From sequence record NC_049438.1: a stretch of DNA of 64,000 nt. One strand, written 5' to 3'. Made by a program: the position numbers and the translations under genes. Positions 11,521-50,446 of the stretch are shown one piece after another; positions within the stretch are counted from its first letter, which is position 1; each line of letters starts with the position of its first letter. The stretch comes from Acinetobacter phage vB_ApiM_fHyAci03. The notes under the pieces are model-generated. The model searched no databases. It saw only the letters and a list, made by a program, of their open reading frames with translations, and was not told where the DNA came from.

Positions 11521-11556
11521 GATAATTTCCTCAATTTGATTAATGATTTGATATGA

Positions 11557-11590
11557 CTATTATAACAACAATGGCCCAAGATGTAAACAT
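11557..11590 (-). promoter_or_regulatory. early promoter (GTTTAC/TATAAT) upstream of 11278..11520
   Basis: ATTATA at 11559..11564 and GTAAAC at 11583..11588. ATGGCC…GGCCAT dyad around the -35. Confidence 0.55.
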
Positions 11591-15399: not shown

Positions 15400-15864
15400 T
15401 TACTCTCCCAACATTTCGTTTACTTTGATGAATAGATCGCCAGTCTTTCCACCATTTTTATCAGGGTGAATAGCAAATCTAATTCGTTTAAGTTCTGCCA
15501 TAGAAAACTCATCTTTTCCTACAGGCTTTTGATCCCTTTTGAGAATATCTTCAAAGTTTGCCTTTGAAGTAAACTCTCTAGCTTTCAGTTTTACAACAAG
15601 CTCATATTCCTTTAGAAGCTTGTTGTAATCATCCACATTCATATTATGTTTCTTTTCTAAGCGAAGATACAGATCCTTGAGCCTATTTCTATTGTTGACT
15701 ACATCATTGTAGTCGTACACAAGCTCTTTGTACTTTCTATGAAATATCGTGTATTGGTTGTAGAAGTGCAAGAAGCCTGCATATCCACCCATCATCAACA
15801 GAAAAATTACTAAGAAGTCCATTCTAATTTCCTCAGATCTTGTTAATAAGACAATTATAACCAA
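15400..15864 (-). CDS. membrane-anchored J-domain (DnaJ-like) protein
   Basis: N-terminal TM segment (FLVIFLLMMGGYAGFL). The C-terminal region …ELKRIRFAIHPDKNGGKTGDLFIKVNEM… has the HPD tripeptide and helix II/III context of a J domain. Confidence 0.5.
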   Translation of the reverse strand: MVIIVLLTRSEEIRMDFLVIFLLMMGGYAGFLHFYNQYTIFHRKYKELVYDYNDVVNNRNRLKDLYLRLEKKHNMNVDDYNKLLKEYELVVKLKAREFTSKANFEDILKRDQKPVGKDEFSMAELKRIRFAIHPDKNGGKTGDLFIKVNEMLGE

Positions 15865-16786
15865 CTTTATGTTTAAGCAACTTATATGTTGGCGTACTTA
15901 AAGGTAATCCTAATTTGATGCGTGCTTTATCACCATCTGATAAGTTTTCAAACTTGATTAATGCAGGCTTGATGATAGTTTTGAGCCTATGCATATTGTA
16001 ATAGATTTTTTCTAATTCGTTTTTCAATCTACTGATAGCATTTTCATGATATGAAATTTCATTGGTTGCAGCTTTAAACTCGATCGGTTTAAGATTAAGT
16101 GTTTCACCATTACTTGTTGCACAATTTTTGTAGAACTTGTTCAACGCTTTAGCCGATGCAAGTAAAGCCGATTTCAGCGACTCTGCCTTTTCAGTATGCA
16201 CAGTTAAAAGTCGATTAATCTTTTTAGCTTTAGCTTTTCCTACAGGTTGTCCATTTTTTGCGATCAATGTAGCTTCAGTTTCTCTAATTAATGCAATACG
16301 ACGTTCATACGAAGCTTTAGTGTTTTCATGAACTTCTAATAACTTTTTCCAGCGTGGCAGATGCTTAGGATGAATCTTAGGCTTATTGTACTCTTTGTTC
16401 ACTGCATCTTTGAGTGCATTAGCCGCAGTAATAGTACCTATTGCAATAGAATGAAATGTTACTTCTGCTTCTTTGGTGATAGCCATTGAATTCAATTCAT
16501 TAATACGAGCATCGATTGTATCAGAAGTTAGATCACTGCGTAAAGTGTTTAATTCACGTCGTACCGGAATAACATTACCGTCAATATAGCCAATGGTATT
16601 ATCAATACGTTCTAATGACATAGACGCGGTTTCATTTTCTTCAAAAGGCATACCGGAATATGCGCATAGTGTTTGATGTTTAATATTAGCAAATGTAGAC
16701 AATGACATATCAAATTTGATACCACGTAATTTAGCATTCTTAGCTTTGTTTACGAAACATTCCGCAATTTTGATGTTAGAGATCAT
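15833..16786 (-). CDS. hypothetical protein (possible degenerate HNH-like segment near N-terminus)
   Basis: 317 aa. CAYSGMPF…LERIDNTIGYIDGNVIPV… weakly recalls an HNH core but lacks the conserved His. The rest is coiled-coil rich. Confidence 0.35.
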   Translation of the reverse strand: MISNIKIAECFVNKAKNAKLRGIKFDMSLSTFANIKHQTLCAYSGMPFEENETASMSLERIDNTIGYIDGNVIPVRRELNTLRSDLTSDTIDARINELNSMAITKEAEVTFHSIAIGTITAANALKDAVNKEYNKPKIHPKHLPRWKKLLEVHENTKASYERRIALIRETEATLIAKNGQPVGKAKAKKINRLLTVHTEKAESLKSALLASAKALNKFYKNCATSNGETLNLKPIEFKAATNEISYHENAISRLKNELEKIYYNMHRLKTIIKPALIKFENLSDGDKARIKLGLPLSTPTYKLLKHKVGYNCLINKI

Positions 16787-16905
16787 TTCGATGCTCCTTT
16801 TGTCATTGATGAACGTTCACAAAGATAGATAATTGCAAGAGTAGCAAAGAATGCCAAAATAAAAATTGAAAATGTCATATTAATTTACTCATTTAGTTGA
16901 TATGG

Positions 16906-16938
16906 CTATAGTATCAAACTATGTCTTAGATGTAAATA
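16906..16938 (-). promoter_or_regulatory. sigma70/early-type promoter (TTTACA, 17 nt, TACTAT)
   Basis: Plus strand shows ATAGTA at 16908..16913 and TGTAAA at 16931..16936. Confidence 0.5.
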
Positions 16939-16969
16939 GCCTGTGTGATTAAATTTTGATCATGTAAAT

Positions 16970-17114
16970 GTAAAGCACGCGTGCTTTACAAAATTTTGAT
17001 GTTATAATGGTTCTACCGGTTCACCGCTCTAATTATATCTGCTGTTCGGTCGGATAATATATGCTGCTGCGCAGCCGGCGCTGTGCGCCGAAATTAGATG
17101 TTTTAATTGTTTAG
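16970..17114. repeat. copy A of a ~130-bp inverted repeat (partner copy at 47991..48133, about 90 percent identical in opposite orientation)
   Basis: Direct comparison shows 52-nt and 38-nt identical blocks separated by a diverged 17-21-nt core. The repeat contains the palindrome GTAAAGCACGCGTGCTTTAC (16970..16989) and two GC hairpins, GCTGCTGCGCAGC (17063..17075) and CGGCGCTGTGCGCCG (17077..17091). Confidence 0.8.
16982..17008 (+). promoter_or_regulatory. MotA-box-like element (TGCTTTA) 14 nt upstream of TATAAT on the plus strand inside repeat copy A; middle-promoter-like geometry, antisense to the flanking genes
   Basis: TGCTTTA at 16982..16988 and TATAAT at 17003..17008. The same module in copy B faces the minus-strand genes. 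A strong bidirectional terminator lies 150 nt downstream at 17155..17177. Confidence 0.3.
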
Positions 17115-17154
17115 ATGTTTTTGATATATCTCGACTGATATTTTAGGCAAAAAT

Positions 17155-17177
17155 AAAGGAGCCATTTGGCTCCTTTT
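17155..17177. terminator. bidirectional terminator (AAAGGAGCCA-TT-TGGCTCCTTT with A/T runs on both sides)
   Basis: Lies immediately 3' of the macrodomain gene. It would also terminate plus-strand transcripts coming from repeat copy A. Confidence 0.6.
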
Positions 17178-17178
17178 G

Positions 17179-17622
17179 TTATATGTACAATACATAAATG
17201 TTCACGTCTGGCGTTACTTCGTTAATTATTTCTGCAATTTTCTCCCAGGTTCCACCTGCAATACCAGCGCCAATTTTAGGAATTCCCACCGATTTGCCGG
17301 CATATTTTTCATTGATTACAGTAAATGCCTTTCTGATGCTATCATATAAAACATGTTCAGGACATTTGCCAGGTCTGAACTGAGTATACGCATTAATGAT
17401 GTCGCCGTTAACAGTTTTGGCGATGCTCACATCGCCGAGCTTGCTCCAATCACCATATTCAGTTTTCTTGTCTGCTTCTAATGCAACAGGAAATGTCTTG
17501 CTAATAGAACCTGCAACTCCGGCTCCCATTGTATGGAAACAGTTGCAACCATGGGCTATCGCATCAAAATCATTATGTTGGAATGCTTCAAGCAAATCAC
17601 AATATACATATTGCCTAATCAT
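17179..17622 (-). CDS. TARG1/DarG-type macrodomain protein (ADP-ribose binding/hydrolase fold)
   Basis: 147 aa. …AIAHGCNCFHTMGAGVAGSI… and …GIPKIGAGIAGGTWEKIAEIINEV…IYVLYI align with TARG1 (…AHCISEDCRMGAGIAVLF…, …[25 protein letters not shown]…ITVYTL). Confidence 0.55.
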   Translation of the reverse strand: MIRQYVYCDLLEAFQHNDFDAIAHGCNCFHTMGAGVAGSISKTFPVALEADKKTEYGDWSKLGDVSIAKTVNGDIINAYTQFRPGKCPEHVLYDSIRKAFTVINEKYAGKSVGIPKIGAGIAGGTWEKIAEIINEVTPDVNIYVLYI

Positions 17623-20689: not shown

Positions 20690-20722
20690 AACAATACTCT
20701 TGGTGAATTAGATTTGATAGAG

Positions 20723-20756
20723 CTATTATAATATAGCCCTATCATGATGTAAACAG
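20723..20756 (-). promoter_or_regulatory. early promoter with PeSL dyad (GATAGAGCTAT…ATAGCCCTATC)
   Basis: ATTATA at 20725..20730 and GTAAAC at 20749..20754. Confidence 0.6.
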
Positions 20757-31904: not shown

Positions 31905-31932
31905 GTTAGTTCCGATAAGTTATTTGATAGAG

Positions 31933-31966
31933 CTATTATACCACAAAAGGGAACCAGTGTAAACTG
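31933..31966 (-). promoter_or_regulatory. early promoter upstream of 31590..31904
   Basis: ATTATA at 31935..31940 and GTAAAC at 31959..31964. Confidence 0.6.
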
Positions 31967-36193: not shown

Positions 36194-37312
36194 TTACTCC
36201 AATAATGCCTTTTCCCACATCGCGTACACACGAGATGGATTGTATTGTTCATATAATGCATTAGCACGTGCAACACGTTGTTCATATGTGTCTTCGAACT
36301 CATTTAATGCTTTAGAATATGCGGCAATAATGTCATTAGTTGTCATACCTTCTTCAATCCAAACAACTTTAGTTAATGGATCATGTTCAAGTGTTGCATG
36401 ACTATAACCACGTTTGATGAGTTGAAGTACAGGCACACCTTTCTCAATAGCTTCCAATGAACCATGTTCAATAGTGCCTGTGTCATGACAAGTGTTAACA
36501 AGGACTAGCGCTTCGGCTAATGTTGCCTGGATAGTTGCACGCGGAACATCAATATGTACAAAAGGCTCTTTGAGATATTTCTTAGGTGGTGCCCATTGAC
36601 TTGGCAGGAATGCAGCAATTTTATGGTGAGATTTACTCATTGCTTCTAAAGCTACATTTGTCTTTCTGAATTTCAAATCATAGCGCTGTGCTGAAACTAC
36701 AACACCATTAGAAGGCAGCACTTTAGGACGATTTTCGATTAATGTAGCCGGGAAGAAATTATCTGAGATGATGTCATGCTCTTGCCAATAATCGAAATCA
36801 ATTGCACCTTTAGCAACTTTGATATTCATTTTTGAATACACTTGAGCCGTAAGGTCTTTAAATGTTTGAGTTGGCACAAGATTCTTGCCGCCATTTTGGT
36901 GAATAAAAACAGCAGTACGCCAAATTGAAACAAGTGTTCGAATACTAGGATCGAGTGGCGTGGCTAAAAGGTTTCGAATTTTAGGTCCTAACCCGAGTTT
37001 GATCAAGCCATTGATAACACCTTTTGCACCTTCAACAGTAACAACTACATCATATTTTGAATAGTCCAATTGTGAAATTTTGTCAATGATTTTGTTGCCG
37101 TGTTTGATAGTGTACTTGTCCACAATTGGGTAGTCAATAGATATTGCATTGACTTTATATGGACCAAAGTTCTCATCGCCGAACGCCATGTAATCGATTT
37201 CATGGTGCTTACTCATTGTTTTGATGAAATTCAATTGAACTGATTCTAAGCCACCGGAAATATAATCAGCATTAAATGTAATAAATCGACATGGAATGTA
37301 TAAAATTTTCAT
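36194..37312 (-). CDS. GT-B (GT4-like) glycosyltransferase, paralog 2; candidate hmC-DNA glycosyl/arabinosyl transferase
   Basis: 372 aa. C-terminal GT-B donor-binding signature …NTCHDTGTIEHGSLEAIEKGVPVLQL…. Roughly 50 percent identical to the adjacent paralog. Confidence 0.55.
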   Translation of the reverse strand: MKILYIPCRFITFNADYISGGLESVQLNFIKTMSKHHEIDYMAFGDENFGPYKVNAISIDYPIVDKYTIKHGNKIIDKISQLDYSKYDVVVTVEGAKGVINGLIKLGLGPKIRNLLATPLDPSIRTLVSIWRTAVFIHQNGGKNLVPTQTFKDLTAQVYSKMNIKVAKGAIDFDYWQEHDIISDNFFPATLIENRPKVLPSNGVVVSAQRYDLKFRKTNVALEAMSKSHHKIAAFLPSQWAPPKKYLKEPFVHIDVPRATIQATLAEALVLVNTCHDTGTIEHGSLEAIEKGVPVLQLIKRGYSHATLEHDPLTKVVWIEEGMTTNDIIAAYSKALNEFEDTYEQRVARANALYEQYNPSRVYAMWEKALLE

Positions 37313-37367: not shown

Positions 37368-38513
37368 TTATTTTAAAACATTTTCCCAGAGTTTGAAATA
37401 TGCTTCTTCGTTAAATTTGTTGTAAAGATATTCAGCCCGTGCAACACGTTGTTCATATGTATCTTCAAACTCATTTAATGCTTTAGCATACATCTCGATT
37501 AATTCTTGAGTACTTGCACCTTCTTCAAATTCAACTCGAACAGTATTAGGGTCGTACTCAAATGTAGCATGGTTGTATCCTTTTTGAATGAGTTGAAGTA
37601 CTGGCGTACCTTGAGAAATAGCTTCAAGCGATCCATTTTCTACTGTACCAGTGTTGTGGCACGTATTGACAAGAAGTTTGGCAGTTGAAATTTCTTTTTG
37701 TATGGTTTGTCGTTTAGCATCGATAATGACCCAGTGATCTTTCTCCAGCCATTTTTTGCCAGGTGCCCATTTCGACGGACAGAATGCGATCTTAGGCCCA
37801 TCAAATAAATCCATTGCACCGAATGCAACATTAGATTTTCTGAATGCATTGTCAAACCGTTGGGCTTGTACAATATGCCCTTCAGAATGAAGGACTTCAG
37901 GTTTATTTGCAATCAAAATCGGCGGATAAAATTCATCTGCAATAATATCATGATTTTGCCAATAATCAAAATCAATGACTTCTGCGGCAATACGTTCATT
38001 CATTTTAGAATAAACCTTTGCAGCTAAATCTTTGAACGTTTGAGTAGGAACGATATTCTTTCCGCCAAGTTTATGGACCATTACTGCATTGTTCCAGCAT
38101 TGTACGATACCACGAACTGATGGGTCAAGTGGAGTAGCAAGAATATTACGAACCTTTGAAATTTGTCCAAGTTCGGCTAATGTATTAAGAACCATTTTAC
38201 TGCCTTCAATGATCACAATAGCATCGTACCGATCCCAGTCTGTGATTTCTTGAAGTTTGTATTTGATTTTATACGCATGTGCGGTAGTGAACTTTGCGCC
38301 AATAGGTTTATCAATTGATAATTCGTTAACTTTAACACTGCCGAAGTTTTCGTCGCCAAATGAAACGTAATCGATATCATGCACTTTTGACAAGTTGACA
38401 ATAAAATTATACTGAACCGCTTCAAGGCCGCCAGCAACACGATCAATATCAAATGGCACTGAACGGCAAGGTAAGTATAAAATTTTCATATTATGCTCCA
38501 ATAAAATTTTCAA
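37368..38513 (-). CDS. GT-B (GT4-like) glycosyltransferase, paralog 1; candidate hmC-DNA glycosyl/arabinosyl transferase
   Basis: 381 aa. …NTCHNTGTVENGSLEAISQGTPVLQL…. Tandem paralog of 36194..37312 with an identical C-terminal tail (…ALNEFEDTYEQRVARA…). Confidence 0.55.
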   Translation of the reverse strand: MKILLEHNMKILYLPCRSVPFDIDRVAGGLEAVQYNFIVNLSKVHDIDYVSFGDENFGSVKVNELSIDKPIGAKFTTAHAYKIKYKLQEITDWDRYDAIVIIEGSKMVLNTLAELGQISKVRNILATPLDPSVRGIVQCWNNAVMVHKLGGKNIVPTQTFKDLAAKVYSKMNERIAAEVIDFDYWQNHDIIADEFYPPILIANKPEVLHSEGHIVQAQRFDNAFRKSNVAFGAMDLFDGPKIAFCPSKWAPGKKWLEKDHWVIIDAKRQTIQKEISTAKLLVNTCHNTGTVENGSLEAISQGTPVLQLIQKGYNHATFEYDPNTVRVEFEEGASTQELIEMYAKALNEFEDTYEQRVARAEYLYNKFNEEAYFKLWENVLK

Positions 38514-44315: not shown

Positions 44316-44655
44316 TACATTGCTTTAAACGCTTTTGGTAGTTTGAAGACTTAAGATAACCAAATTCAATCAAGGTTTGCTCGATTGCCATTTGACGACA
44401 AGTGTGAATTACAAAAGTTGCTGCATCCATTTGTGGCTTATTACGAAGTTTCTCCAGTACAGGACGCTCACGTTCTACTGCATCATCAATATGTGTCTGA
44501 AGCATCCTGCGATGATTTTGCATATCTTCTTCTAAATCAATTCGACGTTGTTGATCAGCTAAACATCGTTTGTCCCATCCTTTGCACATTTGTATATCTT
44601 CAGCAAAAGATAAACTTGGAATAGCTAATGCTAGTGCAATCAATACAAATTTCAT
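44305..44655 (-). CDS. secreted/periplasmic protein (signal peptide)
   Basis: 116 aa. MKFVLIALALAIPSLSFA signal peptide. Several Cys residues. Confidence 0.45.
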   Translation of the reverse strand: MKFVLIALALAIPSLSFAEDIQMCKGWDKRCLADQQRRIDLEEDMQNHRRMLQTHIDDAVERERPVLEKLRNKPQMDAATFVIHTCRQMAIEQTLIEFGYLKSSNYQKRLKQCIGE

Positions 44656-44948
44656 TACATTGCTCCCAATAAGCTTGCGATAATTGCAAGGTCACCGACA
44701 CCTGCTATAGCAACAATTAGTAATAAGACTAATGCAAATGCGATAGATTTTAAAGCATTCATCACACCGATCGATATTGCAGCTATGATAAATGCAATGA
44801 ATGTTGTTACGCCCATTGTAACGAAGCCAAGTAAGTTTAGAATAACCACAAGGACTGTAATCGCAGTAGAACTCTTATAGAATACTACCATTGCAATAGG
44901 AAATATTGACAAAAATAACGCTACGATACTTCCAAATAAGAGACTCAT
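44655..44948 (-). CDS. polytopic small membrane protein (Imm-like position next to gene 43)
   Basis: 97 aa, almost entirely hydrophobic helices. Sits between the gene 42 region and gene 43, where T4 imm lies. Confidence 0.35.
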   Translation of the reverse strand: MSLLFGSIVALFLSIFPIAMVVFYKSSTAITVLVVILNLLGFVTMGVTTFIAFIIAAISIGVMNALKSIAFALVLLLIVAIAGVGDLAIIASLLGAM

Positions 44949-45256
44949 GAGGCGTCTCCTTTAAGTAAAATTAACTCGGTTGTAGTATAGTTAAGTTGAT
45001 CGATAGTGATACAAGTATCTTCCCAACGTTTAACAACATCTTGAACTTCAGCAATGACTTCGTAGTCAGATCCTGGATAGTTGTCCCAATCTTCTGCACG
45101 TCGAATCGGTTCATCACTAAATGCAGTAATAGTTCCATCTTTGTCGACTGCTACATGAGCAGCCCATTCTGGCAAGTATACTGTTACGGGACCAGATTTT
45201 TCAGAACCTGAGATTAGTGTAACATTTAACGCATGCGGATAGTAAGTAATTTTCAT
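44945..45256 (-). CDS. hypothetical protein
   Basis: 103-aa ORF. Confidence 0.4.
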   Translation of the reverse strand: MKITYYPHALNVTLISGSEKSGPVTVYLPEWAAHVAVDKDGTITAFSDEPIRRAEDWDNYPGSDYEVIAEVQDVVKRWEDTCITIDQLNYTTTELILLKGDAS

Positions 45257-45310
45257 GACGATTTCCTCATTAGGAATAATTATTTGATAGAGTTATTATA
45301 CTAACAAAAA

Positions 45311-45338
45311 TAGCGAAAGTAAAACAAAACTTTCGCTA
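45311..45338 (-). terminator. 10-bp hairpin (TAGCGAAAGT…ACTTTCGCTA) followed by TTTT
   Basis: Perfect inverted repeat with an 8-nt A-rich loop. The -10 of a probable promoter follows. Confidence 0.5.
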
Positions 45339-45344
45339 TTTTAA

Positions 45345-45647
45345 TCATTTGCCGTAACGATTTACGAAATGTTCTACCATGTTGTCTGCAATAGTCGCAG
45401 CTGATGAAGAAACTCCATCGCATCCACGAAGGACACCGCTATTTGGCAGATATGCCAATGCACAAGCCTTCCAGAATTCACGTTTCTCTAATTCTGTGAT
45501 TGCAGGAGTAGGTGTACTAAAAAGCTGGTATTCACGAGCTTCATCCACCGATACAGTAGTTCTACATTTAGTACAACGAACTTTAGGTGGACTACTTAGC
45601 AATACTGCGTCGAAATTAAATTCATGATTGCATAATAAACTGTTCAT
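45345..45647 (-). CDS. hypothetical protein
   Basis: 100-aa ORF. Confidence 0.4.
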   Translation of the reverse strand: MNSLLCNHEFNFDAVLLSSPPKVRCTKCRTTVSVDEAREYQLFSTPTPAITELEKREFWKACALAYLPNSGVLRGCDGVSSSAATIADNMVEHFVNRYGK

Positions 45648-45680
45648 AACTTACCTCTAGAGGGCATAGAGCCCTCGTTT

Positions 45681-46853
45681 TTAAAAGTCAAATAAATCTT
45701 CTAATGAAGAACGTTTTTCTGCTTGCATACCTGCAGATTCACACATACCTTCCAAAGGTTTCTTATATGTTTTTGTAAACAATGACATAACGTCAATATG
45801 TTTTAAAACATCTTCACGAATTTCTTTTGGAAGTTCGTTACCTGATGGCCATGCAATAACTTTGTCGCCGAATGGATTTCCAGGTTTCAAAGGCAAGATC
45901 ATAACTTTATCACCTTCACTAATATCCGGTAAGTTATCGAATGCCTTAATTGCACGTCGATACGTCAAAACACCACGAATATGACTAGGACATTTCAATC
46001 CAGGGAAGCCATTATCATCATATTTTGCAATGTTATTTGCAGTTCTTACACCTGCAATAACTTTGTAATCAAGATTTCTAAATTCATTTTCAAATTTCTT
46101 GAAATAGTCTTGAAGTGGCTTTTCACCTTCTTGGAGCATAATACGAATACTTTCTAACAATGCATCTTTGACCGCTTTAGGTGTAGATGATTGTTGAGTT
46201 TCCATGCCCATGATTTTCAAGTATGGCTCTTTAAAACGAGTACCTTCCATGTCATACACATTTAATGCATAACGTTTCTTAGCTCGCCAGAATCCACCAA
46301 TACCGTTTGAACCGAGTGGTGGACATGCAATTGCTTCGCGATCCATGAACATTAATTGCTCATAGTTGTTAAGATATTCGCACAGTTCTTGGAAGCCTGC
46401 ATTAATAACTGGTTCGATTTTCTTTGAACCTACTGCATCTAAGAAGTCAACTAATTTTTCAGTTGATGCAAATTTTTCAATGCCAACTTTATCAATGAGT
46501 GGACTCAATTCAATATACAATGAATCTGTATCACCATAAATTACATACGGATGATTAGTTGTTCCACACATTTCATTAAGGTATGCATTAATTTTTCGTT
46601 CTGTCCATTGAAGGACCAATTGTCCGAAAATAGTAATCGCTTCTGCATTACGAAGATCGTAAAATCTAAAGTAGATATTGCCGAGTGCACCATATAATGA
46701 ATTAATCAATAATTTTCGATTAATTTGATTCGTATCACACAAAACAATATAGTTTTCACATTCATGCTCAAGTTCAAGCAATTCTTCTTGTGAAAGTGTT
46801 TTGAGATATTCGATTTCGGATTCAGTTAAGTCACGACTAAAATCTAATTTCAT
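45681..46853 (-). CDS. 43B: DNA polymerase gp43, C-terminal fragment (43B: fingers/palm motifs B and C, thumb)
   Basis: 390 aa. Motif B KLLINSLYGALGN. Motif C VIYGDTDSLY. Confidence 0.85.
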   Translation of the reverse strand: MKLDFSRDLTESEIEYLKTLSQEELLELEHECENYIVLCDTNQINRKLLINSLYGALGNIYFRFYDLRNAEAITIFGQLVLQWTERKINAYLNEMCGTTNHPYVIYGDTDSLYIELSPLIDKVGIEKFASTEKLVDFLDAVGSKKIEPVINAGFQELCEYLNNYEQLMFMDREAIACPPLGSNGIGGFWRAKKRYALNVYDMEGTRFKEPYLKIMGMETQQSSTPKAVKDALLESIRIMLQEGEKPLQDYFKKFENEFRNLDYKVIAGVRTANNIAKYDDNGFPGLKCPSHIRGVLTYRRAIKAFDNLPDISEGDKVMILPLKPGNPFGDKVIAWPSGNELPKEIREDVLKHIDVMSLFTKTYKKPLEGMCESAGMQAEKRSSLEDLFDF

Positions 46854-46874
46854 ATAAACTCCAAATTGATGGGA

Positions 46875-47039
46875 TTATTCTATAACATCATAATCAACTG
46901 ACACTATAGCTTTAATTGTTAGTTCCTTTGAACAGGATTCGCAATTGACTTTGAATTCTTCATCGGCATGTCTCCAATGCTCAAAGTAATCGGACGTGTC
47001 AAGTTCAGAATTGCAGTGTGGGCAGTATATTTCAAACAT
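46875..47039 (-). CDS. small zinc-ribbon protein (54 aa)
   Basis: MFEIYCPHCNSELDT…VNCESCSKEL… has two CxxC pairs. Lies immediately upstream of 43B. Absent from the ORF track because it is under 60 aa. Confidence 0.35.
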   Translation of the reverse strand: MFEIYCPHCNSELDTSDYFEHWRHADEEFKVNCESCSKELTIKAIVSVDYDVIE

Positions 47040-47149
47040 TTCTATGCCTCAAAAGGGATATGACAATTATATCATATCCCTTATCAAAAGCTTAACTATA
47101 ATTCAGATTGTATAATGTAATACGAATCACTTTAGGCGTACGTTTATAT

Positions 47150-47368
47150 TCAAAACATCGCATTGATAACTTCGGCGCCGGCAATTACAGGATTTTTAAA
47201 CATGATACAACCTGTAACAAATCCGGCTAAAAACAACACAGGAATACAGATTAATAGGGCTACAAAAACTCGATACCACAAGCTAACGTATTCACCAATT
47301 GATTCACAATTTTCATTTGCTACTTTAATTTGTTCGAAGATATTCATAGGCCTAACTCCCACAGGCAT
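47150..47368 (-). CDS. small membrane protein in polymerase-splitting insert
   Basis: 72 aa. Hydrophobic core. Confidence 0.35.
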   Translation of the reverse strand: MPVGVRPMNIFEQIKVANENCESIGEYVSLWYRVFVALLICIPVLFLAGFVTGCIMFKNPVIAGAEVINAMF

Positions 47369-47661
47369 TGGTTTAATAACTGATTGATTGAACGTTCGTT
47401 ATGTATAGATTCATTAAGAAGCTGTGCTATAACACGATAATCTGTTTCACTATTGCATCGAGCGTTAAGAATTGTTTGTGCATTTGTGCGACACATATCA
47501 AACGTTTTGAAGAAACTGTCATAACGAGGCAAACGAATTGCATTTAACACATTAGGTTTCCAAACAACATTGAACTTGCCATTGACTTCATCAATAAAGA
47601 ACAACATAGTTTCAATAGATTGAGTATATGTGTACTCTTCGGGCGATGTATAAACTCTCAT
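47344..47661 (-). CDS. hypothetical protein in polymerase-splitting insert
   Basis: 105-aa ORF. Confidence 0.4.
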   Translation of the reverse strand: MRVYTSPEEYTYTQSIETMLFFIDEVNGKFNVVWKPNVLNAIRLPRYDSFFKTFDMCRTNAQTILNARCNSETDYRVIAQLLNESIHNERSINQLLNQCLWELGL

Positions 47662-48002
47662 CGACTTACCTCTGCATCAAAATCTACAAATTTAGCTCTA
47701 CATTCATGATAGACACTATGCATTAAATCTAACACTCCATAATTGAATTGAGAATTTTCTGATTTCCCAAGCAGAGCTCGGGAGCGTGCCGCTATTTCTG
47801 AATTTATAAATTCTAGAACTTCTTTACCTTGTGGATATCGTAACATCTTAGGCACGAATTGTGCGTCAATAGTAATATTACATCTGCCTCTTAACACAGT
47901 AGCTATAAATGGATAATATTCTATCCAATGCTCGCCTGTCGAGCTTGATATTACTCTATTTTGTCCATACATAATAACCTCGTAATATATCAAATTAATC
48001 AA
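47658..48002 (-). CDS. hypothetical protein in polymerase-splitting insert
   Basis: 114-aa ORF directly downstream of repeat copy B. Confidence 0.4.
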   Translation of the reverse strand: MINLIYYEVIMYGQNRVISSSTGEHWIEYYPFIATVLRGRCNITIDAQFVPKMLRYPQGKEVLEFINSEIAARSRALLGKSENSQFNYGVLDLMHSVYHECRAKFVDFDAEVSR

Positions 48003-48133
48003 ATCATCTAATTTCGGCGCACAGCGCCGGCTGCGCAGCAGCTATTCTGTACCGAACGGCAGATATAATTAGAGCGGTGAACCGGTAGAACCATTATAAC
48101 ATCAAAATTTTGCAAAGCACTCGTGTGCTTTAC
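47991..48133. repeat. copy B of the ~130-bp inverted repeat, located inside the insert that splits gene 43
   Basis: Reverse complement matches copy A. GC hairpins CGGCGCACAGCGCCG (48015..48029) and GCTGCGCAGCAGC (48030..48042). Confidence 0.8.
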
Positions 48134-48167
48134 GAATATAGATCATTTTATGAACACTCAAACCAAA

Positions 48168-48395
48168 TCATAACAATTCTTGGATTCTTCTAGATTTATA
48201 CTGCATAAGTTCGGTACGTGTCATTCCTGAAGTGTCCTGTTCACACTGCGCGTTAACTGTTTTAATCATAATGAGGGTATTATGATTTATATTATCTATA
48301 GGAAGTTGTCGGCAGTGTGTGTCTGACATAACTATTCTGCATGGATATTGCTTTGCGATATCTCTAATACTTTCATAATATTGCTTAAGTGACAT
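48168..48395 (-). CDS. hypothetical protein in polymerase-splitting insert
   Basis: 75-aa ORF. Confidence 0.35.
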   Translation of the reverse strand: MSLKQYYESIRDIAKQYPCRIVMSDTHCRQLPIDNINHNTLIMIKTVNAQCEQDTSGMTRTELMQYKSRRIQELL

Positions 48396-48419
48396 ATCAA
48401 ATCTCCATAGATTTTAGAA

Positions 48420-48453
48420 TAATTATATCATAATCAAAAAGCAAAGTAAATAT
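48420..48453 (-). promoter_or_regulatory. early-type promoter upstream of 48168..48395
   Basis: ATTATA at 48422..48427 and GTAAAT at 48446..48451. Confidence 0.45.
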
Positions 48454-48466
48454 TTTAGACAAAAAT

Positions 48467-48488
48467 AAAGGACCCATTTGGGTCCTTT
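48467..48488 (-). terminator. terminator hairpin (AAAGGACCCA-TT-TGGGTCCTTT) inside the polymerase-splitting insert
   Basis: Near twin of the 17155..17177 hairpin. Confidence 0.55.
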
Positions 48489-48501
48489 AGATAAAATGAA
48501 A

Positions 48502-48858
48502 TTATACAACGCTATACATTGTAACCGCAATAGGTAGAATTTCATTTGTCAATGTATTAAGGCTACCTTCAGTGATAGGAGTTCCTTGGAAACGATGAAC
48601 GATACGTTCAATTTCAACAACTTTTCGTTTATTAGTTTCTCGATCACGTGGATCAATTACCAATTTGATATTATCATCTTTAAATTCCAGTGCAAGGATC
48701 CCGAGAGTAATTTTTGCATCTAACGAGCGTGTAGAACGAGTATCAATTACTGGAGCTGCTGTGTTAAATTGTAATTTAGATTGCTGGATCATAATATCTC
48801 TACGTACTTTGTAAGTTGATAGGATTATTATATCAATAACCCTATCACATGTAAACAA
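48502..48858 (-). CDS. hypothetical protein in polymerase-splitting insert
   Basis: 118-aa ORF. The real start is probably the internal MIQQSK… at about 48792. Followed by a terminator at 48467..48488. Confidence 0.35.
   Translation of the reverse strand: MFTCDRVIDIIILSTYKVRRDIMIQQSKLQFNTAAPVIDTRSTRSLDAKITLGILALEFKDDNIKLVIDPRDRETNKRKVVEIERIVHRFQGTPITEGSLNTLTNEILPIAVTMYSVV
48825..48858 (-). promoter_or_regulatory. early promoter with PeSL dyad (GATAGG…CCTATC) immediately downstream of 43A
   Basis: ATTATA at 48827..48832 and GTAAAC at 48851..48856. Confidence 0.6.
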
Positions 48859-48859
48859 A

Positions 48860-50368
48860 TTATTTCATTAATTTTTTAATCACTTCGGCATTACGCTTTG
48901 CAGCCATCATTTTCTTCTTCCATTCTTTACGTTGGAAGAACACTTTAGTAATTTCTTGTGGAATGATACCTTGCTTTGTCTTCGAATACATCATACCGCT
49001 TGGCGAGCATGAGAATTCATTTGAAGGACTCGGTGCAATCTTATTAATGAAATCACTAAGTTTAGGCGGTGCAAATTGTCCTGCAATTGTTTCTGGGCTA
49101 ATGTTTACCTGGCGAATGATTGACGGATACAGAGATGTTACGTCAAACGACAAAACATATTTGTACGCACCAGGCACAGGGTTTTTAACATATGCGCCTT
49201 CATACGGTTGTCGAACATTTGGCTTAGCTTCCGGTAAAACTAAGTGCTCGGCTTTTAATGAGTTGAAGATAATTGCATCCCAAGTTTTCACAGGACTCAT
49301 TACTGTTGCAATATTCATTCGAGCGTAATAGCCCATTGAAATTGACAGGTTGATAAATCCTCGTTTTGCGTCAATTGCTTGTACACAGTACACATCGACA
49401 ATGTTATATGAAATATAACGCTGGTGGTTTGATTCACGTAATTTGTCGATTGGCCCATCATATTCTAATTTGTTGATGCCAGCTTCATATTCTGCAATAT
49501 AATCGAGTTTATATGATGGCTGTGAAGTAAACGCAAACTTTTTGTATAAATCCATGTAATCGAGAATCATGATTCCAGAAATATTGAAAATTTCTTTATC
49601 TCCATACATGTTTTGAATGACTTTTGACGTTACTTTACCAAAAGGACTTAAACGTTTCATGTTCGAGACGCCAAGAACGTTTTTGATACGATTTACAATA
49701 TATGGAATATCAAATCCTTCAACGTTCCAACCGGTGAAGATGACAGGAGTTTTTTCTTCCCATAAACGAATGTATTCTAACAGCATTTCCTTTTCTGTTT
49801 CGAATGGCATATACACAACTTTATCTAAAATATGTTGTGGAACTTCATCGCCGCCTTCATCAATTGATTTGCCTGCAAGAACCGGATCCCACTTTGAAAC
49901 ACGTCCACGTTGAGAGTTCAACAAGTCAAACACGTAGTATTTGTCATCAATAGAATCATAGTGTGTAATTGCATCAATTTCATATTTTGCAAAAGTCGGA
50001 TTCGGGAACTCTCCTGCTGTTACCTCGATGTCACAGTTTGCAACACGAATTGCATTTCTGTTATATGTGATGTCCTTTTTTCCATACACATCAGAAATAT
50101 ATGCAAGTTTGAAGTCATCCATACCTAAAATTTCTACAATTCCACGTGTCTTTTGCATCCAGTCTTTAGCCTCACGAATGGAGCTAAAACGTTTAGGAAT
50201 ACATGGCTTGCCATAAATGTCTTTATATTTTGATTCAACGCCTTCTTTGGCATGAATGAACAATGTAGGCTCATATGGAATTTCACGAACTTTTTCGACG
50301 CCATTTTCCACATAACGCTCTTGAATAAGGTCACCAGATTGTTCAACTACTAGATAGAAATTATCCAC
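48860..50368 (-). CDS. 43A: DNA polymerase gp43, N-terminal fragment (43A: N-terminal, 3'-5' exonuclease, motif A)
   Basis: 502 aa. Exo I …CDIEV…. Motif A …FDVTSLYPSII…. Ends between motifs A and B. Confidence 0.85.
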   Translation of the reverse strand: MDNFYLVVEQSGDLIQERYVENGVEKVREIPYEPTLFIHAKEGVESKYKDIYGKPCIPKRFSSIREAKDWMQKTRGIVEILGMDDFKLAYISDVYGKKDITYNRNAIRVANCDIEVTAGEFPNPTFAKYEIDAITHYDSIDDKYYVFDLLNSQRGRVSKWDPVLAGKSIDEGGDEVPQHILDKVVYMPFETEKEMLLEYIRLWEEKTPVIFTGWNVEGFDIPYIVNRIKNVLGVSNMKRLSPFGKVTSKVIQNMYGDKEIFNISGIMILDYMDLYKKFAFTSQPSYKLDYIAEYEAGINKLEYDGPIDKLRESNHQRYISYNIVDVYCVQAIDAKRGFINLSISMGYYARMNIATVMSPVKTWDAIIFNSLKAEHLVLPEAKPNVRQPYEGAYVKNPVPGAYKYVLSFDVTSLYPSIIRQVNISPETIAGQFAPPKLSDFINKIAPSPSNEFSCSPSGMMYSKTKQGIIPQEITKVFFQRKEWKKKMMAAKRNAEVIKKLMK

Positions 50369-50446
50369 GTTATCTCCTTGGTAGGGTATTTTGTATCATT
50401 ATAACACCACAAAAGAGGAAGCTAACTCCCTCTTTTATTTTAAAAA

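Follow-up and report, generated by a model that had tools for sequence, protein, structure and literature searches.

By sequence comparison, two inverted repeats in the analysed window (the 64,000 nucleotides of Acinetobacter phage vB_ApiM_fHyAci03, NC_049438.1, to which all positions refer) proved to be two (c1 and c2) of the five copies of a dispersed cassette, for which we found no published description in the literature. We consider it very probable that the copies form a promoter-plus-leader family in which copy A (c1) is an orphan unit. As to function, a plausible, if tentative, reading of our analysis is that the cassettes are origin promoters in the style of T4 oriF and oriG, which would prime replication via an R-loop.

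The two segments, 16970-17121 on the plus strand (copy A) and 47984-48133 on the minus strand (copy B, or c2), are mutual reverse complements. The preliminary description had paired 16970-17114 with 47991-48133, and a repeat finder, BLAST and a global alignment all confirmed this relationship. The repeat finder returned two arm pairs, 16976-17050 with 48051-48125 (75 nt, 96% complementary) and 17063-17121 with 47984-48042 (59 nt, 88%), and copy B was the BLAST match of copy A in the window (E = 8e-41). Two identical blocks of 52 and 38 nt flanking a diverged centre had been described; the diverged centre and the 38-nt block (17063-17100) stand, and the other block measures 54 nt (16989-17042) by global alignment. 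The parts of copy A and its surroundings are as follows.

16908..16936, minus strand: early-type sigma-70 promoter TTTACA-17-TACTAT with TG, serving a 31-aa ORF and an Srd-like gene
16951..16962, plus strand: upstream A/T tract and GATC motif AAATTTTGATCA, ~45-55 bp upstream of the -10; resembles an UP element
16970..16989, no strand assigned: perfect 20-bp palindrome GTAAAGCACGCGTGCTTTAC, with the GCTTTA box in its 3' arm
16982..16988, plus strand: MotA-box-like TGCTTTA, 14 bp before TATAAT
17000..17008, plus strand: extended -10 TGTTATAAT, read from sequence, with TATAAT at 17003-17008
17009..17038, plus strand: 30-nt block GGTTCTACCGGTTCACCGCTCTAATTATAT, discriminator and initially transcribed region, with the predicted start at A17015
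17015..17181, plus strand: predicted orphan transcript of ~165 nt, placed from promoter and terminator
17036..17056, plus strand: weak hairpin H2 (ATCTG…CGGAT), which can fold, with motif TTCGGTCGGA
17063-17075, plus strand: GC hairpin GCTGC-TGC-GCAGC, abutting the next
17076-17090, plus strand: GC hairpin CGGCGC-TGT-GCGCCG, abutting the previous one
17091..17137, plus strand: A+T-rich tract carrying short tandem repeats of the TTAGATGT type; a candidate for a DNA unwinding element, or else an A/U-rich RNA part
17155..17181, no strand assigned: bidirectional intrinsic terminator, closing the predicted copy A RNA and the convergent tk.4-like gene

The palindrome, both GC hairpins, the TGCTTTA 14 nt 5' of TATAAT and the bidirectional terminator (17155-17176) had already been picked out in the preliminary description, and each was found in place. 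The early-type promoter stands back to back with copy A, and AAAAT(T)TGATC recurs upstream of Lazarus c1-c4, the Hadassahvirus copies and the Acj61 and Acj9 copies. Tandem Repeats Finder reported a period of 8 with 3.2 copies at 17094-17120, and the terminator has a relative at 48450-48493 (89% over 44 nt; repeat finder, family D8). A scan of the whole window against Rfam at gathering thresholds gave no match, and a permissive scan of 16900-17250 gave only sub-threshold matches, all of them on the terminator.

Judging from these elements, each cassette appears to be a self-contained transcription start with an extended -10 promoter. Copy A holds the sole perfect plus-strand TGnTATAATGG of the window, and TGn is common to all copies, so the promoter need not depend on MotA, whose gene is present in Lazarus together with those for AsiA and RNase H. 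The GCTTTA box 14 bp upstream probably aids the promoter in four of the five copies: GCTT(T/A)A-N14-TATAAT is kept in Lazarus c1-c4, in AbTZA1 c1, c2 and c4, in ZZ1 c3 and c5 and in Acj61 c5, and Lazarus c5 has TTTACA-N17-TATAAT, a sigma-70 -35 element taking the place of the box. The arrangement had been likened to T4 middle-promoter geometry, which is inexact, since the T4 MotA box (a/t)(a/t)(a/t)TGCTTtA sits 12±1 bp before TAtaaT (PMC2988021), against 14 bp here. We counted 13 bp in T4 PuvsY, P34i and P56, and matches to box plus TATAAT just 5' of Lazarus gene starts have a spacing of 11-12 bp. TGCTTNA-N11-15-TANNNT was not enriched in the window (12 matches vs 7.8 expected). The extended -10, the membership of a five-copy family and the 14-bp spacing outside the T4 rule are features additional to those of the preliminary description.

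Copy B is directed at minus-strand genes, as had been said, and it lies ~115 nt upstream of a 104-aa ORF within the stretch separating 43A from 43B, the two parts of the split DNA polymerase gene; a protein family search with this ORF gave no match. All of the following features are on the minus strand.

47984..48133: copy B (c2), whole
48133-48112: imperfect palindrome
48101-48093: extended -10 TGTTATAAT
48092-48063: invariant block
48063-48046: H2
48042-48030 and 48029-48015: GC hairpins
48014-48005: AAATTAGATG
following these: A+T-rich tract, ending at the SD GAGG at 47982-47979
47658..47972: 104-aa ORF (MYGQNRV…) served by copy B

Copies c2, c4 and c5 run on into genes, and c1 and c3 are orphans oriented against gene flow. 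The view of copy A as a plus-strand orphan held up, its predicted transcript (~165 nt, from ~17015 to ~17180) stopping at the bidirectional terminator and containing no conserved ORF; c1 and c3 would each yield such a ~165-nt RNA stopped by a bidirectional terminator.

Lazarusvirus and Hadassahvirus genomes have five copies, at the same five gene junctions, three of which lie between core genes (those of c3, c4 and c5).

c1: between srd and tk.4
c2: inside the 43A/43B polymerase split
c3: between gp3 and gp2
c4: between gp25 and uvsY.-2
c5: between rnh and gp34

Lazarus, Kimel and AbTZA1 have five copies each, those of AbTZA1 at the same junctions, and ZZ1 has c1, c3, c4 and c5; a copy at the c5 junction is also present in Acj61, W16, Acj9 and AB1I1P. 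Fifty phage records contain 4-6 matching places per record. By sequence, diverged versions of the cassette occur elsewhere in the Twarogvirinae, in the Zedzed- and Lasalle-virus genera and probably in the Acajnonavirus genus. An nhmmer profile of the family detected four copies in relatives with E = 4e-9 to 1e-3 and only the two known places in the window, and a pattern scan of IMG/VR recovered only two genomes, both already in GenBank. The c4 copies in relatives were obtained by synteny; a tblastn search with UvsY.-2, which matched 1199 T4-like phages, was of no help in placing them. Across copies, the layout is a stem-loop, the promoter, the 30-nt leader block, the weak hairpin, sometimes the twin GC hairpins, and an A+T-rich tandem-repeat tract.

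This distribution bears on how the pair arose. Absence of the repeat from relatives would have pointed to chance duplication, which is ruled out because the repeat is conserved there. The pair had also been suggested to be a mobile regulatory cassette or a duplicated small-RNA gene; in fact it belongs to a family whose five copies keep to fixed syntenic junctions across three genera or more, and the cassette is therefore neither recently mobile nor the product of a recent duplication.

The 30-nt block is identical across all five copies of a Lazarusvirus genome, and the Hadassahvirus copies carry another common leader version (…CGCTCTAAATTTA…), so that five Lazarus copies share one version and five AbTZA1 copies another; this indicates that the cassette copies evolve in concert. 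Gene conversion between copies is directly visible on copy comparison, as in Kimel, where the centre of c1 is of the c2 type. The limits of the identity block are sharp and reproducible, at about -25 to +30, and the flanks vary from copy to copy. The quality of the stem-loop declines from c1, where it is perfect, through c2 (near-perfect) and then c3 and c4 (both imperfect) to c5 (weak); the palindrome versions in copy B and the other copies are imperfect (GTAAAGCAC-ACGA-GTGCTTTGC and others). A purine-rich stretch akin to GGA..AGATAG that comes after H2 is the most widely kept motif across genera.

Twin GC hairpins are restricted to c1 and c2 in Lazarus, three of the five copies lacking them. 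In other genera they occupy the same place with a different sequence, as a comparison by eye revealed.

Lazarus: GCTGC/GCAGC and CGGCGC/GCGCCG
Acj61: CTGC/GCAG and TTTGTGC/GCACAAA
W16: GGGC/GCCC and GCACA/TGTGC
ZZ1: GAGGC/GCCTC and GTCC/GGAC

Three-nucleotide loops closed by C·G occur in 14 of the 16 twin-hairpin stems compared across genera, and one loop in the Lazarus c2 twin hairpins is flipped to its reverse complement; both features suit a palindrome at the DNA level no less well than an RNA hairpin. A consensus from MAFFT and RNAalifold misaligned the diverged hairpins and returned a meaningless 4-bp structure. H2 energies range from -2 to -12 kcal/mol and beat shuffles only in Acj61. 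We rejected H2 and a CTAATT/AATTAG-closed four-way junction as conserved structures, as neither is conserved in AbTZA1 c2 or in c3-c5 and the H2 energies are not significant.

The promoter would fire into the genome-fixed leader, then the hairpins and then the A+T-rich repeat tract; under the origin reading, the transcript would invade this easily melted tract and form a persistent R-loop. In copies that have them, the stable GC hairpins would fold on the displaced non-template strand and help to keep the loop open for helicase loading, and origin-linked recombination, as in T4, would account for the gene conversion behind the uniformity of the copies. Of the five active T4 origins (PMC3016281), oriF and oriG are ~100 bp units comprising a MotA-type promoter and an A+T-rich unwinding element and acting in R-loop mode (PMC3016281; Kreuzer & Brister 2010). 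In the T4 RefSeq record, oriF lies between gene 25 and uvsY in the minus direction, the same junction and the same firing direction as c4. The T4 oriG is an orphan promoter whose primer RNA is antisense to gene 34, and it thus provides a precedent for the orphan copies; it maps ~2 kb from the c5 position with the same firing direction, and c5 adjoins gene 34 and fires away from it, like the oriG primer RNA. That c1 and c3 have no gene to express also favours this reading. No positional match was seen between c1, c2 or c3 and T4 oriA, oriC or oriE (oriA is ~5 kb from srd), and the family profile did not match the T4 origins.

The A+T-rich tract is the candidate unwinding element. In all five Lazarus copies, a 50-bp window that starts 50-100 bp past the -10 ranks among the least stable 0-3% of all genome windows, which supports the reading weakly, because the background was the whole genome and not intergenic DNA only, and A+T-rich intergenic DNA commonly has a duplex of low stability. 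The A+T-rich tandem repeats have a period of 8-9 nt (9/18 with a score of 80 in Lazarus c3), lie inside the transcribed region, vary in number among copies and phages and recur at syntenic places of related phages. Against an origin function, the leader RNA is pyrimidine-rich, which disfavours a stable RNA-DNA hybrid, and the strict conservation of the 30-nt leader is left unexplained, because T4 origins need only a promoter and an unwinding element; the 14-bp box spacing and the sigma-70 -35 element of c5 also count against it. In its strongest form, the proposal is that Twarogvirinae have sequence-defined origins, namely a five-copy promoter/leader/displaced-strand hairpin/unwinding cassette kept uniform by origin-linked conversion, with orphans that would serve only to prime DNA synthesis; we regard this version as possible yet rather doubtful.

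The main rival, which we would call an open but uncertain possibility, is that the cassette works as RNA, either as a shared structured leader or as a small RNA. The conserved 5' leader, H2 (including its GGA-purine motif), twin hairpins and A/U-rich tract would then constitute a recognition module for a trans factor, for example an RNA-binding protein of phage or host origin, a ribonuclease or Hfq. Through this factor, rnh, the uvsY.-2 cluster and the ORFs within the polymerase split would be regulated together, and the orphans c1 and c3 would be free-standing ~165-nt small RNAs acting as decoys, sponges or trans-acting regulators. Every conserved part lies downstream of the promoter and always has the same orientation relative to it, and the 5' UTRs, at 105-135 nt, are of unusual length. 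Pairing within the twin hairpins persists although their sequence changes between genera, and a strictly conserved leader that changes jointly across the copies from one genus to the next is consistent with a trans factor co-evolving with it. The copy A transcript folds with z = -3.2 relative to shuffles, whereas the copy B leader is unremarkable (z = -0.36). The lack of an Rfam family, an H2 that is thermodynamically weak and, Acj61 excepted, no better than shuffles, the missing twin hairpins in most Lazarus copies and loops of mostly 3 nt, as opposed to the tetraloops usual in selected RNA hairpins, all weigh against an RNA function. Leader nucleotides 1-15 had no perfect complementarity of at least 10 nt in the Lazarus genome outside the copies. 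A few 12-14-nt complementary matches to variable cassette parts in that genome look like chance.

T4-type phages also carry promoter-stem-loop cassettes, whose Mot-box versions are known as PmSLs (PMC4122927, Comeau 2014; PMC2839356, Arbiol 2010). It is conceivable, though unlikely, that the family is simply a PeSL/PmSL-like stem-loop with a strong promoter, the stem-loop insulating and having no further function. Frequent gene conversion, and not selection on a specific function, would then maintain the extended similarity, and the orphan copies would be by-products or insulators acting via convergent transcription. The cassettes do have the stem-loop directly upstream of, or overlapping, the promoter, a layout that fits known PeSLs and PmSLs, the Mot-box variant included; many PeSL-like early promoters lie on the minus strand of the window (families D1-D3), and the visible conversion between copies agrees with this account. 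However, PeSLs occur in hyperplastic regions with indels between close relatives, and the cassettes occupy fixed junctions in at least three genera: Lazarusvirus and Hadassahvirus have all five in common, and ZZ1 uses four of these. The sharp, reproducible limits of identity would be unexpected for unselected conversion tracts, a conserved transcribed module of ~100 nt is foreign to PeSLs, and two copies drive no gene.

The preliminary description had further proposed that the inverted copies serve as a recombination substrate flipping the 31-kb segment between them and so producing genome isomers. Recombination is very active in T4-type phages (PMC3016281), and the 54-nt perfectly identical inverted block would suit such an exchange. 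We nevertheless consider this role highly improbable, as no fixed inversion was found: a 2.5-kb query over copy A aligned collinearly in 34 related genomes, at least 80% of it being covered at a single place, a result obtained from assemblies, in which rare isomers may go unseen. The genes between the copies are all on the minus strand in Lazarus and on the plus strand throughout in AbTZA1, where the whole record is reversed. Recombination looks like a cost rather than a purpose, because the five copies stand in both orientations and exchange between direct copies would delete essential genes.

That the conserved block encodes a small protein (MVLPVHRSNYI…, with the start ATG inside TATAATGG) is the least probable of these readings and was rejected. 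Every copy does have an ATG-initiated frame, and a hypothetical protein is annotated at this place in some GenBank records. The ATG, however, overlaps the -10 and hence precedes the predicted transcription start, and a Shine-Dalgarno sequence is absent. The frame stops after 16-28 codons at a place that differs by copy (only Lazarus c3 has a long version, and in Kimel c3 the stop comes early), and nucleotide conservation is 100% including third positions, with between-genera changes that are not synonymous. An RNA anti-CRISPR mimicking a CRISPR repeat was likewise rejected, since A. baumannii I-Fb, Pseudomonas and E. coli I-F repeats align no better than shuffled repeats; the by-eye cue for such a mimic was GTTCAC…, a hairpin and then TTAGA.

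The cassette may be an origin mark or a new small RNA or leader of T4-like Acinetobacter phages. Lazarusvirus and Hadassahvirus include several phages used against multidrug-resistant Acinetobacter baumannii, such as the AB-Navy and AC4 phages of the Patterson case, and hardly anything of their regulatory map has been annotated; a conserved five-copy cassette, two of whose copies have no gene, offers a concrete handle that is open to deletion testing. If the cassettes are origins, the long-open problem of origin specification in T4-like phages would become tractable outside T4, and sequence-defined origins would constitute the first recognisable origin signature for a T4-like phage group, some members of which are therapeutic. 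If they are RNA modules, they would represent a new phage non-coding RNA family. Either way, the 54-nt identical blocks are built-in recombination substrates, which bears on genome stability and phage engineering.

Several known systems resemble the cassette in part. Like PeSLs and PmSLs, it is a repeated intergenic stem-loop with a promoter whose copies are able to recombine, but PeSLs are short and tied to gene gain and loss, whereas the cassette has few copies at positions that are stable across genera. Copy A follows the layout of a typical enterobacterial small RNA, a point in favour of the RNA reading: its conserved 5' end is single-stranded and its middle structured, and it has an A/U-rich stretch and ends in an intrinsic terminator. 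With Hfq-type bacterial or phage small-RNA genes it shares its own predicted promoter, a predicted length of ~165 nt and the absence of a conserved ORF; unlike in Hfq-type small-RNA genes, the module doubles as the 5' UTR of three genes. Compared with T4 origins, which have no common sequence, the five cassettes share a ~60-bp near-identical block and further modules. The box spacing is 14 bp as against 13 bp in T4 origin promoters, a sigma-70 -35 element replaces the box in one copy, and the GC hairpins and short tandem repeats are features of the cassette, unlike T4 origins. Common to the cassette and oriF/oriG is a compact unit of ~100-150 bp in which a promoter with a MotA-box-like element and a -10 is followed by an easily melted tract; like T4 origins, the cassettes number about five sites per genome, and the phages that bear them possess genes for MotA, AsiA and RNase H.

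The window derives from a Lazarusvirus (Twarogvirinae), a T4-like phage of Acinetobacter, and its copy A locus is 98.8% identical to that of phage Abraxas. The inverted repeat pair reported in the preliminary description was recovered by a repeat finder run on the window (16976–17050 against 48051–48125, 96% complementary over 75 nt; 17063–17121 against 47984–48042, 88% over 59 nt), by BLAST against the window, in which copy A as a query retrieved copy B with E = 8e-41, and by global alignment of the two copies, which share identical blocks of 54 nt (16989–17042) and 38 nt (17063–17100) around a diverged centre. It is a genuine repeat, well outside what chance would produce. The palindrome, promoter elements, GC hairpins and bidirectional terminator described for copy A (plus strand) were all found in place, and are listed here with the features that flank copy A:

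15833–16786, minus strand: Srd-like gene flanking copy A
16936–16908, minus strand: early promoter, back to back with copy A
16970–16989: 20-bp palindrome
16982–16988: TGCTTTA, 14 nt before TATAAT
17003–17008: TATAAT
17063–17075 and 17076–17090: two GC hairpins
17155–17176: bidirectional terminator
17179–17622, minus strand: tk.4-like phosphatase/macro-domain gene flanking copy A

The −10 of copy A is also an extended −10, TGTTATAAT, which had been overlooked. A second repeat lies beside both copies (17138–17181 and 48450–48493, 89% identical over 44 nt) and consists of intrinsic terminators, AAAGGAGCCATTTGGCTCCTTT and AAAGGACCCATTTGGGTCCTTT, whose stem carries a compensatory change; one lies 3' of copy A and the other ~325 nt upstream of copy B.

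Reading the two copies as a pair proved too narrow, as they are two of the five members of a syntenic family in the complete Lazarus genome (L002), at junctions c1–c5:

c1 (copy A), plus strand: srd / tk.4 junction
c2 (copy B), minus strand: inside the 43A / 43B split
c3, plus strand: gp3 / gp2 junction
c4, minus strand: gp25 / uvsY.-2 junction
c5, minus strand: rnh / gp34 junction

Phage Kimel has the same five cassettes, and AbTZA1 (genus Hadassahvirus) likewise has five, with junctions and relative orientations unchanged; a 101-nt core query matched 50 phage records at 4–6 places each, bearing out conservation in relatives. Recognisable versions occupy the rnh / gp34 junction in Acj61 (Lasallevirus), W16 and ZZ1 (Zedzedvirus), Acj9 (Acajnonavirus) and AB1I1P, and ZZ1 has further copies at the c1, c3 and c4 junctions; self-searches of the genomes with these diverged versions detected 2–3 copies per genome. 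The Lazarus and Hadassah copies were used to build an nhmmer profile, which found exactly two cassettes in the window and gave E-values of 4e-9 for AB1I1P, 9e-6 for W16, 1e-5 for Acj61 and 1e-3 for ZZ1 c3, with Acj9 marginal (E = 0.5). Cassette positions are stable, with no sign of recent mobility found in them. A 2.5-kb query spanning copy A was collinear in 34 relatives, so no inversion is fixed among them, and the idea that the repeats invert the segment between them is left without support.

Read in the promoter direction, the cassette comprises the following modules:

(a) A/T tract with GATC, AAAATTTGATC
(b) stem-loop, the GCTTTA box forming its 3' arm
(c) GCTTTA-N14-TATAAT with TGn
(d) discriminator and initially transcribed block (leader), GGTTCTACCGGTTCACCGCTCTAATTATAT, invariant across the five copies in Lazarus
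(e) weak hairpin H2, motif TTCGGTCGGA, with a purine-rich 3' arm GGA..AGATAG
(f) two abutting GC hairpins, which of the Lazarus copies only c1 and c2 possess
(g) AAATTAGATG and short tandem repeats forming an A+T-rich tract
(h) in c2, c4 and c5, a Shine-Dalgarno sequence and gene downstream (5' UTRs of 105–135 nt); in c1 and c3, a bidirectional terminator ~165 nt past the predicted start

In c5, a 5-bp insertion replaces GCTTTA-N14 with a sigma-70 early-type TTTACA-N17-TATAAT. The H2 motif with its purine arm is the cassette motif most widely kept across genera. Tandem Repeats Finder assigned the repeats of Lazarus c3 a period of 9/18 (score 80) and those of copy A a period of 8 (score 31).

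The copies show concerted evolution: the five in Lazarus all carry the leader version …CGCTCTAATTATAT…, all five in AbTZA1 carry …CGCTCTAAATTTA…, and AbTZA1 c3–c5 have a 1-nt deletion in common. Modules also move between copies: Kimel c1 has a c2-type centre, and a single GC hairpin has been gained by AbTZA1 c5. The second hairpin of Lazarus c2 has its loop reverse-complemented, TGT to ACA (L002 47840–47870, CGGCGC-ACA-GCGCCG, against window 48015–48029, CGGCGC-TGT-GCGCCG, a comparison of close relatives). This flip is a DNA-level palindrome event; the entire hairpin corresponds to its own reverse complement, the trace of template switching inside a palindrome. The form of the twin hairpins is preserved from genus to genus while their sequence changes:

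Lazarus: GCTGC-TGC-GCAGC and CGGCGC-TGT-GCGCCG
Acj61: CTGC-TGC-GCAG and TTTGTGC-TGT-GCACAAA
W16: GGGC-TTC-GCCC and GCACA-TAAA-TGTGC
ZZ1 c1: GAGGC-GTA-GCCTC and GTCC-GTA-GGAC
ZZ1 c4: GTGGC-GTA-GCCAC and GCACC-ATC-GGTGC

The leader has diverged between genera, being (TCCCCTA)x3 in ZZ1 c3 and G/C-rich in ZZ1 c1 and c4. The heptamer leader of ZZ1 c3 (L023 3333–3420) shares a 9-nt complementarity (UAUCCCCUA / UAGGGGAUA) with a G-rich motif of the c4 leader, and ZZ1 c1 has a similar G-rich motif, GUCGGGGAUGA; transcripts of different ZZ1 copies might thus pair. The T4 oriF and oriG transcripts both contain ATAGAG at about +28 to +37 (oriF GAATAGAGAACAA, oriG AGATAGAGCAACAA), with a counterpart, AGATAGAG, at about +40 to +47 in Lazarus c3 and c4; the T4 oriA leader lacks it, and the likeness may be a coincidence.

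In T4 middle promoters, the MotA box lies 12 ± 1 bp from the −10 (PMC2988021), and we counted 13 bp in PuvsY, P34i and P56. Lazarus TGCTT(T/C)A and TAnnnT elements just upstream of gene 39 (9420), gene 32 (146540) and dsbA (147808) are 12 bp apart, and those of a match near 137871 are 11 bp apart. The 14 bp of the cassette is therefore off the T4 rule: the box and TATAAT are promoter-like, but the match to T4 middle-promoter geometry had been overstated. Since this spacing is kept across genera, it is probably functional. MotA and AsiA genes are present in Lazarus, and the TGn element means that the promoter could work without MotA too. Separately, the minus strand at 2451–62649 carries more than 14 copies of a 45–50-nt early-promoter motif, GTTTACA…N17…TATAAT (repeat-finder families D1–D5; e.g., 11540–11589, 20706–20755 and 31916–31965), many with an inverted repeat across the −10 region, such as GATAGGGCTATATTATAATAGCTCTATC; they resemble the PeSL promoter-stem-loop cassettes of RB49 and phi1.

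Copy B lies within a split DNA polymerase gene (window ~44500–50400; L002 44537–50197), in the region that separates 43A (48860–50368, minus strand) from 43B. The ~3 kb between the halves holds small ORFs and copy B, and in Lazarus also a plus-strand HNH endonuclease gene. A 104-aa ORF starts ~115 nt downstream of copy B, which may be a promoter for the 43B half. Elsewhere, a 95-nt direct repeat (36263–36357 and 37434–37528, 79% identical) lies in two adjacent paralogues annotated in the Lazarus record as putative DNA alpha-glucosyltransferases, and so looks like a tandem gene duplication. L002 38821–42266 (window equivalent ~1 kb higher) contains a gene set: arabinose-5-phosphate isomerase, sugar-nucleotide pyrophosphorylase, phosphoheptose isomerase, a thymidylate-synthase-like enzyme and two glycosyltransferases. 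This set suggests hypermodified, possibly arabinosylated, hydroxymethyl-cytosine DNA, in which case the cassette GC hairpins would be heavily modified.

Judging from its sequence elements, the cassette is very probably a self-contained transcription start module, copy A being an orphan unit with no gene to express; for the orphan transcript proposed earlier, the promoter elements and terminator stand and the transcript itself is predicted. As to function, we tentatively favour, by analogy, cassettes that would act as origins of the T4 oriF/oriG type. T4 has five active origins, of which oriF and oriG are ~100-bp units with a MotA-type promoter, an A+T-rich unwinding element and R-loop priming (PMC3016281). 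In the T4 RefSeq record oriF lies between gene 25 and uvsY and fires in the minus direction, matching c4 exactly in both respects, while oriG, near c5, is an orphan promoter antisense inside gene 34, a precedent for the geneless copies. Every copy has a low-duplex-stability window 50–100 bp after the −10, among the least stable 0–3% of the genome. Origin-linked recombination would explain gene conversion between copies. However, T4 origins neither need nor share a specific sequence, so an origin role leaves the strictly kept leader unexplained; the pyrimidine-rich leader RNA and the absence of T4 origin counterparts for c1, c2 and c3 also count against it. The cassette gives a testable link to replication origins.

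Leader conservation, fixed orientation and twin hairpins that change sequence yet keep their structure would all be accounted for by the main rival, an RNA-level module with a shared leader and small RNAs from the orphan copies. We rate it slightly below the origin model, as H2 is weak, the twin hairpins are optional with loops of mostly 3 nt, and a complementarity search of the Lazarus genome found no target. No Rfam family matched the cassette. A pure promoter and insulator, kept similar solely by gene conversion, seems less likely than either model. A CRISPR-repeat mimic and a conserved small ORF were rejected by alignment to CRISPR repeats and by comparison of the cassette copies, respectively.

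Our literature search found no paper describing the cassette. PeSL and PmSL, the early and Mot-box promoter-stem-loop cassettes of T4-type phages, are located in hyperplastic regions in association with indels, and lack a conserved transcribed module (PMC4122927). The present cassette, with stable positions and such a module, differs from typical PeSL and PmSL cassettes; it is a previously undescribed variant of the promoter-associated repeat cassettes of T4-like phages.
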